Source of the DNA: Gracilinanus agilis | Lineage: Eukaryota | Direction: 5' to 3' | Length of the DNA stretch: 64,000 nucleotides | NCBI RefSeq assembly: GCF_016433145.1 | Contig: NC_058135.1 | Coordinates: forward strand, 227,010,483-227,074,482 | Made by a program: the position numbers and the translations under genes | Part shown: piece after piece, positions 8,578 through 58,776 of the stretch | Layout: each line of letters begins with the position of its first letter | How positions within the stretch are numbered: the stretch's first letter is position 1 | The notes under the pieces: generated by a model | The model's database searches: none | Seen by the model: only the letters and a program-made list of their open reading frames with translations | Told to the model about the DNA's origin: nothing

Positions 8578-8777
8578 GATACAGAGCTGCAGAGGAAGCT
8601 GGACCATGAGATCCGGATGAGGGAAGGAGCCTGCAAGCTGCTGGCTGCTTGCTCCCAAAGGGAACAAGCCTTAGAGGCCACCAAGAGCTTGCTGGTCTGC
8701 AGCAGTCGAATCCTCAGCTACATGGGGGAACTGCAGCGTCGAAAGGAAGCGCAGGTGCTGGGGAGGACAGCAAGGCG
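8578..8777 (+). CDS. RTKN: Rhotekin exon 2 (HR1/Rho-binding: DTELQRKLDHEIRMREG...)
   Basis: CAG acceptor, GTGAG donor, 200 nt; near-identical to recalled human sequence. Confidence 0.97.
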
Positions 8778-8971
8778 GTGAGCAGGAAGAGAAGGAGATG
8801 AATTAGGGGGCCCCTCCTGCACTAAGCAAATGATGTCTGGAGCCAAAGGTGCTCCCCAAGGATGATTGATTGATTTAATCAATATTTAATGGGTGGCAAC
8901 TCTGTGTCCCCTGATGCCCCGTTGACCAAGACGACTGAATGGGGTAGGCTAACAGGTGTTGCATTTGGATG

Positions 8972-10494
8972 TGTAAGAGGGAGATTTTAGGTATTTTATA
9001 GATATATATTTAAAGTGTGGCTGCCAGGAATCAACAATTCAGATTGATTCCATAATTAAAATAGACCCAAGTCAGGATCGGGTTTAAGGTAGTTTATTTA
9101 CAATTAGGAAGGTAAAAGGTAGGGAAATAGAGAGAGGGAGAGGCTAGTCCAGGCCTGGAGAGGCCTGGACGGAGAGAGAGGGTTAAAAGGCTAATTAAAC
9201 TAGGCTACAAGCCACAAGACCATAGCAATCAGAGAGGCTATAAGCCTACTTAAGGCAGAGTCTGGAAATGCCAAGGTAGGCCAAGGAAGTCAGCCTAACT
9301 TACCCACGTGACCATTCAGAGTAGAAGCTGCCTGAGGTCTCACCGGAGAACCTCCAGCACCAAGTTCAAAGCCAGAACTGCCTCCTCTGGAAGTAACCAA
9401 CATACTTAAAGAGATAGTGCCTCTCCTCACTCCCTGTGGGTACACCTCTAATTTAAGTGGACAAATGGCAGTCTCTACACTGATTTGGACTGCCCAAAGG
9501 GCAGTCCCTTGTTTTTGATTTGTTACTTATTGTCACGTGTGGGTAACTGTCTCCCCTCCCACTAAGGGAGGTGGGGATGACATCTCTATGCCTAGTGTAA
9601 GTAGAGTTTGACTATGAATGGACTAGAGCTAATTCCATTTACACAATCCCCCCTGATGATCATTGGGTGCCTAGTCACCCCAAGTGATCATTTTACATAA
9701 TCCTCTTATACTCACAAAGGTCTTCTAACTACAATAGTTAGAGATAAGAGGGGAATGGAAGAGAGAGAAAGCAAACCAATGTTTGCTAAGCACATTGACA
9801 AGAAACCAATTGGGGGCAGTCCCCCATTGGCATAAAATGTACATTCAAAGTAACTGTTCAAACCTATCAGTCCATTCATTTATACCCAAAGTTCATTCTG
9901 GATTGATGGATGCAACAAACCCATCAGTTCAATCAATTGCAACCCAAAGTTCATTCTGGATCTCTTGATTAAATGTAGATTCTTCAGGCATCTCTCTGCA
10001 AACAGTTCATTCTCTGGATTAAGGAATCAGCAAGTTTCTTTCTCTGAGAAATTTTCTCGAACAAAATCAAAAAATTAAATTTTGGATTTAATAAAAATAC
10101 AATTAAATCTTGGATTTTATAAAAATACAATCCCCCCTGATGTGGGTATTTTAAAAGAAATACCCAGATCAGCTCAAGATATATAGTTGAGTCATGGGGT
10201 TGTATGAGTAAATTCAAAAGAAAAAACAAAAGTATAAAAAAATCAAATGGTCTTATGGCTTGTAGCCTAGTTTAATTAGCTTTTTAACTCTCTCTCTCCG
10301 TCCAGGCCGAGGCCTGGACTAGCCTCTTCCTCTCTGTATTTCCCTACCTTTTACCTTCCTAATTGTAAATAAACTACCTTAAACCCGATCCTGACTTGGG
10401 TCTATTTTAATTATGGAAGCAATCTGAATTGTTGATTCCTAGTGGCCACACTTTAATTATATATCTATAAAACACCTAAAATCTCCCTCTTACA
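8972..10494 (-). mobile_element. ERV-derived insertion: full LTR (9645->8972), PPT, internal fragment, inverted R-U5 arm (10247-10494); TSD GATG
   Basis: TG...CA termini, GATG at 8968-8971 and 10495-10498, ~250-bp inverted arms, AGGGGGG purine tract abutting the LTR. Confidence 0.8.
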
Positions 10495-10994
10495 GATGAC
10501 AGAATTTGGGGTATGTGGTGTCTAGGAGTGTCCAGAACAGATAGTTGGAGGGACCCCTCTGGGCCCAGAATGGCCATGGCATCAGGCTTCTAGAAATCTT
10601 TCACTCACTGACTGTCACATCCTAAGACAGGATTCTCCACAAGCTCTGGAAGGGAACTGTCCTGAACAGAGAACACAGTTCCAAGGCATTGGATATACTA
10701 AGCAAGGAGGCTAGTAGTATCCCTACCAGCTCACGACAAGAATGTTAAAGGGGGTAATTGCAAGAAGGGAAGATGAGAGGAAGGCTTTCAGGGTACATGG
10801 GAGCATGACTCCAACCAAGTGATGTATTGGAATAACCAGAGCTGTAGGCAGTTTAGGGGGGAGGCTAACTGGGCTATCAGATGTTGCATCCAGTGCTAGA
10901 GAGATACAAATGGCTCCAAATTAAAGACTTACAGACACAGGACCTGAAAGAGACTGGGTCCATGCAATACACTTTCTGTATGAGAAGCATCATG

Positions 10995-11160
10995 GCACTG
11001 TGGATAAAGGGCTGGGCTAGGAGGAAGACCAGAGTTCAAATCCCTTCTGAGATATGTACTCCCTGTGGTGACTCTGGGCCTCAGTTTCTCCATCTGTAAA
11101 ATGGGGAAGGGTTAGACTATATGGCCTCAGAGGTCCTTTCCAACTTTAAATCTATAATCC
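10995..11160 (+). mobile_element. Old MIR/CORE-SINE
   Basis: CORE motif CCTCAGTTTCTCCATCTGTAAAATGGG. Confidence 0.6.
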
Positions 11161-12967: not shown

Positions 12968-13085
12968 ACCTACACCGATGGGCTGTGTTCCTGTTGCTGC
13001 AGCTGGGGGGGAACATCCAGGACACAGAGATGGTCCTGGTAGACAGGACATTAACAGACATCTCGTTTCAGAGCAGTCTTCTTTT
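12968..13085 (+). CDS. RTKN: Rhotekin exon 5 (DLHRWAVFLLLQ...ISFQSSLL)
   Basis: CAG/GTGAG, 118 nt, open in the expected phase. Confidence 0.95.
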
Positions 13086-13242
13086 GTGAGTCCTTGAACC
13101 CTCCTCCTTCCCTACTGTCCAACCCACACCTGATCCCTGGCATGGGAGGGAGGTACAGTCCAGATCCCTGTAGAACAGCGCTTCTGGGGCCTCCCTCGAC
13201 TCCCTCCAGAGACCTTTGTCACGTCACCCCCATCTTTTGCAG

Positions 13243-13464
13243 TATGGAGGCAGGACCAGACTTTGAGCTGAGGCTGGAGTTGTACGGGGCCTGCGTGGAG
13301 GAGGAGGGAGCTCTGGCTGGGGCCCCCCGGAGACTGGCCAGCAAGCTCAGCAACTCTCTGGGAAGGTCCTCTGGAAGGCGAGTTCGGGCTTCACTGGAGA
13401 GCGCCGGGGGCTCTGGGAGTAGCAGTGCAGGGAATCCCATCCTGCTCCCCACCCCAGCTGTGGG
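13243..13464 (+). CDS. RTKN: Rhotekin exon 6
   Basis: CAG/GTAAG, 222 nt, EAGPDFELRLELYGAC...PTPAVG. Confidence 0.95.
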
Positions 13465-13859
13465 GTAAGACATCATCCTGTGCCCTGTGGCTCTCTCCAG
13501 TGGTCTCTGAGCCTCCTCACAGACTCACCGGGCTATAGTGGGGGAAGGCAAGAGACATGGGAGGCAAGGATAGCCATTCACACCTAAACATATGGCCCAG
13601 GACACATCTGGGTGATTAATAGCCAAGTGGGCCAGTGTGGTTTAGGAAGGCCTTGGAAGGAAAGGACTCTGGACTGGGCTTTTTAGTGACTGAAGAGATG
13701 CCTTAGACAGCCCTCAATGAAAACGTGAAAATATAAAATTAAAATGGGGGGGGGGAAGCCCCCAATGTCAGAGGAAGAGGAGTTGCTTCACCACGTGATC
13801 CTTTGACTTCCCTCCCAAGCCCATTCTTGTTCCCACCTGTTTCTTTGTCCCTCCCACAG

Positions 13860-23408: not shown

Positions 23409-23921
<513 letters not shown>

Positions 23922-24002
23922 TGAGCTCAAGTCATTTGACTTCCATGTCCATTTTTTAACTATACTCTTATTCCTATCTCCTCACTCTCCCAAGCCCAGT
24001 AA

Positions 24003-24383
<381 letters not shown>

Positions 24384-24484
24384 TAAATCCCTTCCCAGAC
24401 TACCTCTTTGATGTTTAAATGAATAGCCCAGCCCTCCCCCCGCCCCCATAGCCCTCATTCTCCTGTTTCCTCCACTCCCCCCAG

Positions 24485-25831
24485 GGCACTGAGTGTTCGG
24501 AACAGCTCCCCTTGCATCAGAAGACTTGGATCTCATGTTCTGAGGAGCAGAGCTTATCTTTCTGGGAACCTCTTGAGTTGGGGCCCACCCCAGGTCCCCC
24601 CCCAACACCAGAACTCTCTTCACATAGCCCCCAACACTTTGTCTTACCTCACCCTTGTCTAGATTCAGCTCCTAATAGTTATCCCTGTCTTTCTATGTGG
24701 GAGAGTTCCCAGATTTCTTTAGAAACATCCAGTCCATTGAGTCCACATCCTTCTCTAGATATGTACTTATGGGGAAGTTCTCAGGCACCTCTAACTTCAC
24801 AGCCCGCTTACAGATCTCCTCAACGAAGTCCCCAAACCTCTTTACGTCCCCAGGGGGGTGGGGACACCCAAGACCAAATGGAGGAGACAAATTTACCTTC
24901 CCCCTACTACCTATCCGTTCCTCTTCCACCATTCCTGGCTAGTCCTCCCTGGGGCCTCCCAAAATCCCGGTCTCTTCCAACTCAGGTACCTTCACTAAGC
25001 CCCACTTTGTTACCTGCTGCCTCAGCCAAGTTCATGCGCTTACAGCTGGGACGGTCATACCTAGCACCAGGTCTGGTGTATGATAAAATGGGGCAAATCA
25101 TAGCCATGGATCCACTGGATCCTACCCATCTTCCCCAGCACCAAATTCAACCCCTGGCCAAAGTTGTGGTCCCTGATGCAGAAGTCCACCCACTGGAGTC
25201 CTACAAGGAACAAAGGAAGCATGTAAAGTATGGGAAAAAGTTCAATTTCAAGCTACCTACCCACCGCCGCCCCATACCCCACTTCCATCGTGGTTTCCAT
25301 TTCCCGAGCCCAGGCCTTCCCTTCCTAACCCCTGTCTTAGAACTCCAGAACCGACACTTCACTCCAAAGCATTTGCCTAATATCCAATGGCCTAGTGGGT
25401 TGGAGGGGAAAACAGATCTGTTGCAGATGCAGCCAGTGGGTTCAAGTCGGATGCCAAAGATGGAGTCAGGAAAAAGGCCAACTTCTGAGCTGATGAGTAC
25501 ACTTCCTCACCATGGTACAAAAGTCCTTGATGCTACCTCCCAGCTGATGTGGAAACCTTCATCCCTGCTGGACACAATGAAGCTGATGCCTAATGTGAGC
25601 CTCTGGAATCCAAGCAAAAACACTCATCGAAGTGGTTTTATTCCTTCTCGCAGAGAGAGAGAAAAAACCCTTGGTCCACTGACTGAGGAACCTTCTGAGC
25701 AGCGACCCATCCAGACCCATGCACTTAACCCTCAGGTCACGGTGGCTCAGCTGCTGAAGGGCTCCCCACCCAAAGTTCGGGCCCTTCCTTCTCAGGAGAC
25801 CCTCAACACCACCCTCCCTGAGGAAGCCTGA
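24485..25831 (+). CDS. C2orf81: C2orf81 orthologue last exon (Pro/Ser-rich)
   Basis: CAG acceptor in frame with the 439-aa ORF; WPSGLEGK and PQVTVAQL motifs; AATAAA at 25912. Acceptor position less certain. Confidence 0.85.
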   Translation, partial: GTECSEQLPLHQKTWISCSEEQSLSFWEPLELGPTPGPPPTPELSSHSPQHFVLPHPCLDSAPNSYPCLSMWESSQISLETSSPLSPHPSLDMYLWGSSQAPLTSQPAYRSPQRSPQTSLRPQGGGDTQDQMEETNLPSPYYLSVPLPPFLASPPWGLPKSRSLPTQVPSLSPTLLPAASAKFMRLQLGRSYLAPGLVYDKMGQIIAMDPLDPTHLPQHQIQPLAKVVVPDAEVHPLESYKEQRKHVKYGKKFNFKLPTHRRPIPHFHRGFHFPSPGLPFLTPVLELQNRHFTPKHLPNIQWPSGLEGKTDLLQMQPVGSSRMPKMESGKRPTSELMSTLPHHGTKVLDATSQLMWKPSSLLDTMKLMPNVSLWNPSKNTHRSGFIPSRREREKTLGPLTEEPSEQRPIQTHALNPQVTVAQLLKGSPPKVRALPSQETLNTTLPEEA

Positions 25832-32940: not shown

Positions 32941-33133
32941 ATGGAACCATTGGCAATGCTGGACTTGGAGGCCTGGAATCTAGGCAGTTATACTTTCTAT
33001 GTCCTTCCTTTCCTCTTCCTCTTCCTCTTGCTAGTTGTGAGGCTGGATGGATTGGGGTCAAATATTTGGACTCTCCAGAGTTGTCCTATAGACTTAACTG
33101 GGAAGACTGCTGTGGTCACTGGAGCCAACTCAG
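32941..33133 (+). CDS. RDH11/12-like SDR exon 1 (signal anchor + TGANSG)
   Basis: Hydrophobic YVLPFLFLFLLLVV then DLTGKTAVVTGANS; GTGAG donor, phase 1. Start ATG could be 32941 or 32956. Confidence 0.85.
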
Positions 33134-33382
33134 GTGAGAACTCTCTCCCACTGCCTGGGGTCCTATTTCTCTCTTTCCCTTCCCAGGCTCCTCATCCCTC
33201 TTCTAAACAGTATTCTCATTCCTTTTCCTAACATACACCCCATACCATATACATAGAACCACACACACATCCTTTTTCCTTTCTAGGTTTTCCATTCTTT
33301 TCATCTTTCTACATATGTAAAGGTCCCCATTTTCCCTCTTTCCAGGGTCTCTCTCTTTCTCATCACTGCTCTAACCTAAGAG

Positions 33383-33588
33383 CAGGGATCAGCAACGTAT
33401 GGCTCTTGAGCCATATCTGGCTCTTTTGAGGGCCAGATATGGCTCTTTCTGCAGGAGCCATAAAGTCAATTTTTTTTTCAGGCACTGTTACAGGAGTCCA
33501 CTGTGAGCACTGTACGGCTCTCACGAAATTACATTTTAAAAAATGTGGCATTTATGGCTCTCACAGCCAAAAAGGTTGCCAACCCCTG
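33383..33588. mobile_element. hAT-type MITE, 8-bp TSD CCTAAGAG
   Basis: TIRs CAGGGATCAGCAAC / GTTGCCAACCCCTG; TSD 33375-33382 and 33589-33596. Confidence 0.88.
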
Positions 33589-34489: not shown

Positions 34490-35430
34490 ATGTTTTTTAT
34501 TGATTAATTAATTTAGAATATTTTTTTCATGGTTACATGATTCATCTTCTTTCCCTCCCTTCCACTCTCCCCCTCCCAGAGTCAATGAGTAATTCCACTG
34601 GGTTTTACATGCATTGTTCAAAACCTATTTCCATATCATTAATATTTGCAGTAGAGTGATCCTTTAGAGTCAGCATCCCCAATCATATCCCTGTTGAACC
34701 ATGTGACCAATCATTTTTTTTTCTTCTGTGTTCCTGCTCTCTGTGTCCATTATTATTGTTAATTATTATTATTACAGAGGCAAACATGCTCCCAGTTTTT
34801 TTTTAACATTTATTAATATACATTTTTAACATGGTTGCCTGATTCATACTCCTCTTATCCCCTTCACCCCCCCCCCCCCCCGCACTTCCNNNNNNNNNNN
34901 NNNNNNNATTAATATTCATTTTTAACATGGTTACATGATTCATGCTCCTACTTTCCCCTTCACCACCCCCCCCCCCCCGCACTTCCCCCACCCATGGCTG
35001 ATGCGCATTTCCACTAGTTTTGTCATGTGTCCTTGATCAAGACCAATTTCCAAATTGTTGGTAGTTGCATTGGTGTGGTAGTTTCGAGTCCACACCCTCA
35101 ATCACGTCCACCCCGACCCATGTGTTCAAGCAGTTGTTTTTCTTATATGTTTCCTCTCCTGCAGTCCTTCCTCTGAATGTGGGTAGCATCTTTACCATAA
35201 ATCCCTCGGAATTGTCCTGGGTCATTGCATTACTGCTGGTACAGAGGTCCATTACATTCAGTTTTACCACAGTATATCAGTCTCTGTGTACAGTGTTCTT
35301 CTGGCTCTGCTCCTTTCGCTCTGCATCAGTTCCCGGAGGTCTCTCCAGTTCGCCTGGAACTTCTCCAGTTTATTATTCCTTTTAGCACAATAGTATTCCA
35401 TCACCCGCATATACCACAGTTTGTTCAGCC
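34490..35430 (-). mobile_element. L1 3' fragments spanning an 18-N gap (34890-34907)
   Basis: L1 3'UTR/ORF2-end similarity (LNKLWYMRVMEYY in minus ORF). Confidence 0.75.
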
Positions 35431-57822: not shown

Positions 57823-58513
57823 ACGGAGCTGTTGCCCAGCAGGCTTGGCGAGCTGGAATCCAGGTAGTTATACTTTCTATGTCCTTCCTTTCCTCTTCCT
57901 CTTGCTAGTTGTGAGGCTGGATGGATTGGGGTCAAACAACTGGTCTCTTCAGAGTTTGTAGAGGCAGAACCTTAAACTATGCCATGTAGAAGTGGGCTTG
58001 TAAAGACAGCCTCAGAACTAAACCCTGATTCCCTTTCCTTCTCCTTTCCTTGGCGGATAGTTACCTTTACACAAGCTGCTTGCTGCCCATCACTTATCTC
58101 CCTTTACTCCTTCCTTCCTCTGGCTGTGTCCTGACCTTGAATCCCAGGACCATCAACTCCTGCTTCCCCTTAATGATCCACTCTGACTCACCCCTCCCTT
58201 TTCCTGACCTTGGGATTGCTGGGTCCTCCACAAGCTCTGTAAACAAGGATAGCCAGCTGTCTTCAGTCTTGCTTATGCTCTGGACCCCTCCCCTCATCCA
58301 TAGCTTCAGCATGTATGGAACCCTATATAAGCTGGCTGTTGCTTTTACTTGGGGTCTAATCTCTTTGGAAGCTATTCCAGGTTAGGGCCTGCACATTATC
58401 AATAAATCTGCCTTTCCATGACCCTGGGTGTCAGTGAGATTTCTCTTGCTGTAACAAGTTGTCCTATAGACTTAACTGGGAAGACTGCTGTGGTCACTGG
58501 AGTCAACTCAGAG
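57823..58513 (+). pseudogene. Disabled SDR exon 1 duplicate
   Basis: ATG changed to ACG at 57823, early frameshift, 500-bp LTR insertion, 2 extra nt before the donor. Confidence 0.85.
57957..58456 (+). mobile_element. Solo LTR, 500 bp, TSD AGTT
   Basis: TGTA...TAACA, TSD 57953-57956 and 58457-58460, TATATAA 58324, AATAAA 58401. Confidence 0.9.
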
Positions 58514-58776
58514 GTGAGAACTCTCTCCCACTTCCTAGGGGCTCCATTTCTCTCTTTCTTTCCCTTCCCAGGCTTCCCATTCCTCTTCTGGACAATGTTC
58601 TCATTTCTTTCCCCAACATATGCCCCATACCATATACATAGAACCACACACACATCCTTCTTCCTATCTAGGTTTTCCATTCCTTTCATCTTTCTACATA
58701 TATAAGGGTCCCCATTTTCCCTCTTTCCAGGGTCTCTCTCTTTCCCACCACTGCTCTCACTTAAGAGCTTCATCTT

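Follow-up and report, generated by a model that had tools for sequence, protein, structure and literature searches.

A retroviral-type insertion with two mirrored U5 ends in a Gracilinanus agilis intron and the possible inheritance of its inverted junction

Introduction

What event could have produced an LTR-type insertion whose two tips are the same LTR end, mirrored? The window analyzed here, a 64,000-nucleotide stretch of Gracilinanus agilis DNA, contains a non-coding insertion of retroviral type and ~1.5 kb (8972-10494) with this arrangement. Integrase recognises the tips of its substrate only, and 4 bp is the TSD size of class I ERVs. The accessible text of PMC11054761 gives a TSD range of 4-6 bp, and that of PMC8742673 describes HIV-1 integrase as preferring U5/U5 pairs in vitro, with a normal TSD. 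The locus raises two questions: how a molecule with two U5 ends was inserted, and whether its inverted junction was made at this insertion or came from a parent copy.

Materials and methods

Contigs from four sequencing runs (X1-X4) of one organism and one study were aligned to 9224-11050, a stretch that excludes the left arm and the left end of the element. The contig evidence is drawn from the 32 pieces listed of 9,223 and the 24 loose ends listed of 841. By their size and profile, we take X1 to be genomic DNA and X2-X4 to be RNA; if so, depth in X2-X4 reflects expression rather than copy number, and summed depth is no copy number either. A contig was regarded as bridging a junction if it had at least 31 letters on each side. 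Contigs drop rare variants, so that missing letters prove little.

Results

Layout and ends of the insertion

The insertion consists of a complete 674-bp LTR on the minus strand (8972-9645), a polypurine tract (PPT), 601 bp of internal DNA and an inverted 248-bp copy of the LTR 3' end. Its termini read TG...CA exactly, and GATG flanks it on the left at 8968-8971, as seen by sequence inspection, and on the right at 10495-10498, where an exact contig (X3 record 24) bridges the end. Among the duplication lengths of 2 to 9 tried at the flanks, only 4 gave a match. The coordinates, ends and TSD proposed in the first-pass annotation are therefore borne out, and its figure of ~1/256 for a chance match of 4 bp becomes ~1/282 when recomputed from the frequency of GATG in the window (1/282).

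The two LTR sequences are not in direct orientation, the second end being the inverted 248-bp LTR part. The PBS is absent behind both U5 ends, where host DNA is found instead, and none of the 13 CA..TGG sites found by a PBS scan of the sequence pattern, without a tRNA library, lies at an LTR end. There is no PPT outside either element end, and none would be expected if the 1.5 kb were the solo LTR of a giant LTR. Self-BLAST found no second copy of the element within the window, and Rfam gave no matches up to E 1. The LTR-end motif had no match in viral contigs; its one match in metagenome contigs was rejected as a chance 21-nt match.

LTR and internal region

The LTR contains its poly(A) signal, AATAAA, on the minus strand (9093-9098, starting at 9098), and a minus-strand PPT (9654-9646) abuts its TG at 9645. 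The LTR start is fixed at 9645 because heterogeneous loose ends of 70 X1 contigs lie behind this position. Both the sequence and this contig boundary agree with the earlier reading of the left part as a complete minus-strand LTR with AATAAA and a PPT before its TG. A weak hairpin precedes the PPT (9656-9691, z -1.6).

The internal region (9646-10246, minus strand; 601 bp, 35% GC) is non-coding by sequence and high-copy by contig depth. Within it, a 58-bp spaced duplication occupies 9871-9961 and a 28-bp tandem repeat occupies 10073-10131. The longest stop-free frame of the element, 95 aa and non-coding, runs across the inversion junction and has no relatives in the two protein collections searched. 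Sequence and folding delimit a second module of hairpin, PPT and TGT on the minus strand (10127-10172), which the first-pass annotation had overlooked. The 16 nt of its PPT and TGT (10127-10142) are identical to those of the first, and its hairpin has a z of -3.1, with 0 of 200 shuffles equally stable. With this upstream PPT the LTR would measure 1,158 bp instead of 674 bp, and the LTR length of the family may have changed through such PPT duplication. A candidate 'relic LTR' behind the second PPT was rejected for lack of detectable LTR similarity (score 36; shuffles reach 45).

Three side observations concern the same region. Both PPT copies (9643-9691 and 10127-10172) have a hairpin before and TGT after them. 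The 58-bp spaced duplication, taken as 9861-9961, varies across the family, with contig joints that skip 56-108 nt. A 10-mer of the LTR (9499-9508) recurs in the internal region (9814-9823), with a GC-rich hairpin at both places, a recurrence that by itself is within chance.

Arms and inversion junction

Alignment defines a left arm, which is the 3' 252 bp of the LTR and comprises part of the putative R plus U5 (8972-9223, minus strand), and a right arm, its inverted 248-bp copy (10247-10494, plus strand). The 252 alignment columns hold 236 matches, 8 transitions, 4 transversions and one 4-nt gap (13 events; K2P 0.050), and BLASTN of arm against arm gives E values of 1e-106 to 4e-108. The ~250-bp inverted repeats of ~95% identity that had been estimated by eye are thus real. 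The arms are predicted to pair in a 241-pair duplex of -427 kcal/mol. With rates of 1.5-3e-9 and the assumption of arms identical at insertion, their divergence corresponds to an age of 8-17 Myr, which would be a maximum for an inherited arm. At all eight arm differences listed, the left arm carries the family-majority letter (89-100%), in a table that lists only places where the right arm differs (40 of 224 variant rows).

The internal region meets the right arm at 10246/10247, a junction defined by alignment and by one contig with 35 and 129 letters on its two sides (X3 record 21). An A-rich tract evident from base composition (10207-10246, plus strand), U-rich in the element RNA, abuts the junction, and the last 30 positions before it (10217-10246) are 77% A; this feature had been overlooked in the first-pass annotation. 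The LTR side of the junction shows no microhomology, and the folding of the junction region is not unusual (z 0.19). Ahead of the arm start, a TATA-like TTAAGT occurs twice, at distances of 30 and 186 nt, and a donor-like GGTAAG occurs at a distance of 81 nt. A start of R at the arm boundary, as the first-pass annotation suggested, is a candidate reading.

Such a junction could be the product of a single reverse transcription accident, in which one switch of the minus strand onto strong-stop DNA, at 10246/10247, gave a two-U5 molecule that integrase then inserted; the arms, near identical at that time, would have decayed since. We regard this one-off accident as possible, though not as the leading explanation. 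The 5% divergence of the arms fits symmetric decay, since their asymmetry, 9 of 13 events, does not reach significance (p 0.27). Comparable accidents are on record: the accessible parts of PMC9278108 report inversions in two HIV-1 proviruses (1.3% each class), and those of PMC5210030 describe a guppy ERV with an inverted 5' LTR. The lack of microhomology on the LTR side speaks against it.

Abundance and boundaries in the sequencing runs

In X1, median bin depth is 222,168 in the LTR (9224-9650), 67,288 in the internal region and 309,874 in the arm, with 0-2 over most of the flank. The corresponding X3 depths are 853, 1,261 and 2,150, with 3.8 in the flank. The LTR and internal region are far above flank depth in all four runs, and both plainly come from a very abundant interspersed family.

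The right end of the element is bridged without a difference by X3 record 24 (10462-10628; 33 and 134 letters), and X2 record 16 is exact over 376 nt, 16 letters of which are inside the element. X1 cover of the right flank is near zero; the records are filtered, so this has no evidential weight. These data bear on the idea of an assembly artefact, which would be helped by the nearly nil X1 cover of the right flank and by the fact that the contig alignment starts at 9224, with the left end (8971/8972) outside it. However, the arms can be told apart at 13 places, contigs span both the right end (exactly) and the inner junction, and the nearest N gap, the sole one of the window, is the 18 bases at 34890-34907. 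An artefact is therefore highly improbable.

Could the structure instead be a rearrangement after insertion? A normal provirus might have lost its 5' LTR when replication switched template and copied the opposite end in reverse, or a deletion might have joined two independent insertions of opposite orientation. A very abundant family is expected to provide neighbours in opposite orientation, and TGT is common to the start of a normal LTR and the inverted U5 end, to which the flanks add a near match. However, such a rearrangement would have had to break precisely at the TSD or to produce a 4-bp match by chance (1/282), host DNA is absent between the internal region and the arm, and the junction contig X3 record 21 is left unexplained. 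We consider this explanation very unlikely.

In each of the four runs the internal region keeps its high depth until roughly the junction (bin 10200-10260), and none of the 24 loose ends listed of 841 lies near 10246. This pattern would suit a PBS-less parasite that propagates itself. Its read-through RNA would be co-packaged with the RNA of a helper ERV; one helper strong-stop DNA would jump to the 3' R, a second would anneal to the copied inverted arm, and both ends would be rebuilt from helper U5 in each cycle. Such a cycle would explain why the inner-arm letters at 10281 and the 10308 deletion are shared while neither X3 nor X4 has any depth for the outer-arm letters (10419 and 10441). On the other hand, the loose-end listing covers only 24 of 841, no second complete copy is seen among the contigs listed, and the excess of differences in the inner arm (7/90) over the outer arm (6/158) is not significant (p 0.24). 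The cycle further requires packaging without the usual leader, and no precedent was found in the literature searched. A self-propagating parasite is accordingly unlikely.

Other signals in the runs stand apart from these explanations. An opposite-strand joint at 9224/10258 was rejected as an artefact of the left arm being outside the aligned stretch. Another opposite-strand joint, 9457/10339, occurs in X2-X4 at depth 8-18 and is most simply an LTR variant with a ~325 bp deletion, mapped onto the right arm. An X2 contig of depth 3.4 at 9865-9920 has several rare letters in common with this locus and the family letter at two places; it probably stems from a closely related copy of the internal region. 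In X1, the remainder depths at 10281, 10289 and 10328 (~1-2%) match what random mutation would give and were set aside.

Is the junction shared with another copy?

Junction 10246/10247 is bridged by one listed contig, in one of the four runs: X3 record 21 spans 164 nt (10212-10375) with four differences and 0 gaps. Its depth is 24.9, compared with 3.8 for the exact flank contig of the locus in the same run, a 6.5-fold excess. The ordinary LTR form reaches depths of 370, 674 and 388 at the junction point in X2, X3 and X4. At 10281 in X3, the depth without the family-majority letter is 62.7, which equals record 21 plus record 23 exactly; record 21 therefore lacks the left-arm letter there. The 0 gaps in the contig show that it shares the 4-nt deletion of the right arm, and nowhere in its stretch do its letters conflict with those of the right arm.

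Is record 21 then RNA of this very locus, as the one-off accident would have it? The contig ends at 10375, beside the right-arm poly(A) signal (AATAAA, 10368-10373), and the compatible letters agree with an allele or an edited RNA ending at that signal. Editing of locus RNA is plausible because the arms form the predicted duplex. However, the four differences and the 6.5-fold depth count against it. The four differences in 164 nt compare with 0 in the 543 nt of the exact records (Fisher p 0.003). With the exact record from that run as the sole reference the contrast weakens to p 0.06, and heterozygosity of 1% would give four differences with P 0.08; both figures leave room for the same locus. 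Against it, too, the locus letters at 10152, 10043, 9904-9908, 9865 and 9703 have no depth in X3, the nearest of them 60 nt upstream of the contig, which argues against the locus's own RNA at depth 25. In favor of the same locus, X2 has no depth for right-arm letters at 10281 (beyond record 15) or 10328; it also has no junction contig among the records listed, which carries no weight as these are filtered. Record 21 can thus be read in two ways: it comes from a sister copy that has this junction and belongs to the right-arm lineage, or it represents this locus as a different allele or as edited RNA. On this evidence we think it somewhat probable that the inverted junction is shared with another copy, and was inherited rather than made at this insertion.

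Host locus and neighboring sequence

The element lies in an intron of a host gene, ~195 bp behind an HR1-encoding exon, a setting that the first-pass annotation had overlooked. This upstream exon (8578-8777, plus strand) is delimited by splice signals and assigned to a rhotekin-type gene by an HR1 domain at E 2.4e-4, below the Pfam cut-off. An Anillin domain follows downstream (13055-13465, E 9.9e-9), and the host gene is presumably rhotekin (RTKN). The LTR is antisense to the host gene, and the right arm carries its AATAAA (10368-10373) in the sense direction. The intron has thereby gained a 250-bp inverted repeat, a predicted duplex, together with a sense poly(A) signal.

Further along the window, a C2orf81 homologue (DUF4639) occupies 23409-25831. 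Its exon at 24452-25828 is identical at 449 of 450 positions to a Gracilinanus agilis C2orf81-like protein and at 415 of 454 to a Monodelphis domestica protein. Another exon is duplicated, at 33079-33383 and 58457-58768, with 89% identity and a shifted donor region in the second copy. We assume from its reading that it is the start of a short-chain dehydrogenase; the second copy may be a paralogue or pseudogene. Young SINE copies of 180-200 bp and 85-95% identity, which we take to be SINE-1_MD, are numerous within 32340-60900.

Discussion

Insertion of a linear cDNA with two U5 ends by a retroviral integrase very probably accounts for this element. The first-pass annotation had proposed that such a cDNA, produced by a minus strand switching template onto a second strong-stop DNA, integrated as a unit. 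Integration as a unit is supported by the TG...CA ends, the 4-bp TSD and the U5/U5 preference described in the accessible text of PMC8742673. The one-off switch fares less well, because a junction contig with right-arm features favors an inherited junction and the LTR side of the junction offers no microhomology. The alternative of the same annotation, a fold-back non-autonomous family that mimics a TIR element, gains support from X3 record 21, which is one contig; the mimicry of a TIR transposon is unsupported, as the arm belongs to a normal LTR of high copy number.

We tentatively propose that a two-U5 element was inserted as one cDNA by a class I integrase and that its junction was inherited from a parent copy; the one-off accident is close behind. 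Counting against this proposal, no parent copy is seen among the contigs listed, and neither the higher number of arm differences near the junction that it predicts (p 0.24) nor the asymmetry of the arms (p 0.27) is significant. RT stalls on U-rich templates, where rU:dA hybrids are weak. In an ancestor, minus-strand synthesis may have halted within the U-rich tract and jumped to R-U5 sequence, and this switch would have fixed an inverted R'-U5 segment in a member of a high-copy non-autonomous family. When RNA of such a parent was reverse transcribed, the growing minus strand would have copied the inverted R'-U5 segment, and its 3' end would then have been complementary over ~250 nt to strong-stop DNA, either its own 5' end or a co-packaged one. 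A switch at the strong-stop DNA, followed by run-off at the U5 end, would have lost everything upstream, the PBS included. Integrase would then have joined the two U5 ends and left the 4-bp TSD. The resulting PBS-less copy would be a dead end, while a parent with the inverted segment would present a strong switch cue in each round and could yield PBS-less two-U5 copies repeatedly.

The meaning of the element depends on how often its junction occurs: its significance is modest for a unique element and high for a junction found again at independent loci. If the event was single, the element would be a germline fossil of an integrase accepting two U5 ends in vivo, which the accessible text of PMC8742673 shows in vitro only. 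Recurrence of the junction at independent loci, each copy with its own TSD, would mean that there is an LTR subfamily whose ends are inverted. Such a subfamily would be missed by direct-repeat finders and misfiled by TIR finders, and it could serve as a possible model for the step from an LTR element to an integrase-type DNA transposon. Should the PBS-less parasite be real after all, which is improbable, it would represent a marsupial LTR family with TIR-like ends and a Ginger-type outline that moves through RNA and a retroviral integrase.

Comparison with known systems

DIRS elements have inverted terminal repeats and a tyrosine recombinase and produce no TSD. The element described here is likewise a retroelement with inverted terminal repeats; unlike DIRS, however, it has a TSD and a PPT and lacks an ORF. 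The outline of Ginger1 and Ginger2, as given in the accessible parts of PMC2836005, is closer: TGT...ACA ends, TIRs of 40-270 bp, a 4-bp TSD and integrase-type chemistry. A cut-and-paste origin as a non-autonomous DNA transposon of Ginger or MITE type could be suggested by the 250-bp TIR, the TGTNR ends and the 4-bp TSD, all within the Ginger ranges of that source. The target is wrong, however, GATG being unlike CCGG/CCGT of Ginger1 and RTATAY of Ginger2; the transposase is missing; and the arm derives from a 674-bp LTR with a PPT and its own boundary at 9645. In addition, the accessible parts of PMC2836005 name the opossum only for the domesticated Gin-1 gene. A Ginger or MITE identity is scarcely credible and was rejected.

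Defective proviruses with inversions resemble the present element in having inverted LTR sequence within one provirus, with RT template switching as the usual explanation (HIV-1, PMC9278108; guppy PrERV-1, PMC5210030). In contrast to it, neither case is reported, in the accessible parts of these papers, to have two U5 ends with a TSD or a junction common to several loci. U5/U5 concerted integration by HIV-1 integrase, as covered by the accessible text of PMC8742673, likewise joins two U5 ends with a normal TSD, but it used separate short donors in vitro, whereas a single molecule is fixed in the germline here. An ERV family with inverted ends and TSDs was not found in the literature searched, which was mostly open-access and in which PMC8232201 and PMC12221971 contained no relevant passage; one could be on file in Repbase or Dfam or in subscription papers. 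Inverted LTR accidents are thus already known elsewhere, and a recurring inverted subfamily is without a precedent found.

The closest comparison is with non-autonomous class I (ERV1-like) LTR elements, for example the MER4-group type of placentals. ERV1 LTR families are abundant in didelphids according to the accessible parts of PMC8056902. With class I LTR elements, the present insertion shares the TG...CA LTR, the PPT, the poly(A) signal, the AT-rich non-coding internal region, the 4-bp TSD and a very high copy number; unlike them, it lacks two defining features, directly oriented LTRs and a PBS: there is no 5' LTR, and its second end is an inverted partial LTR. In its workings the element nevertheless resembles a non-autonomous class I LTR element, and its LTR is from such a family.
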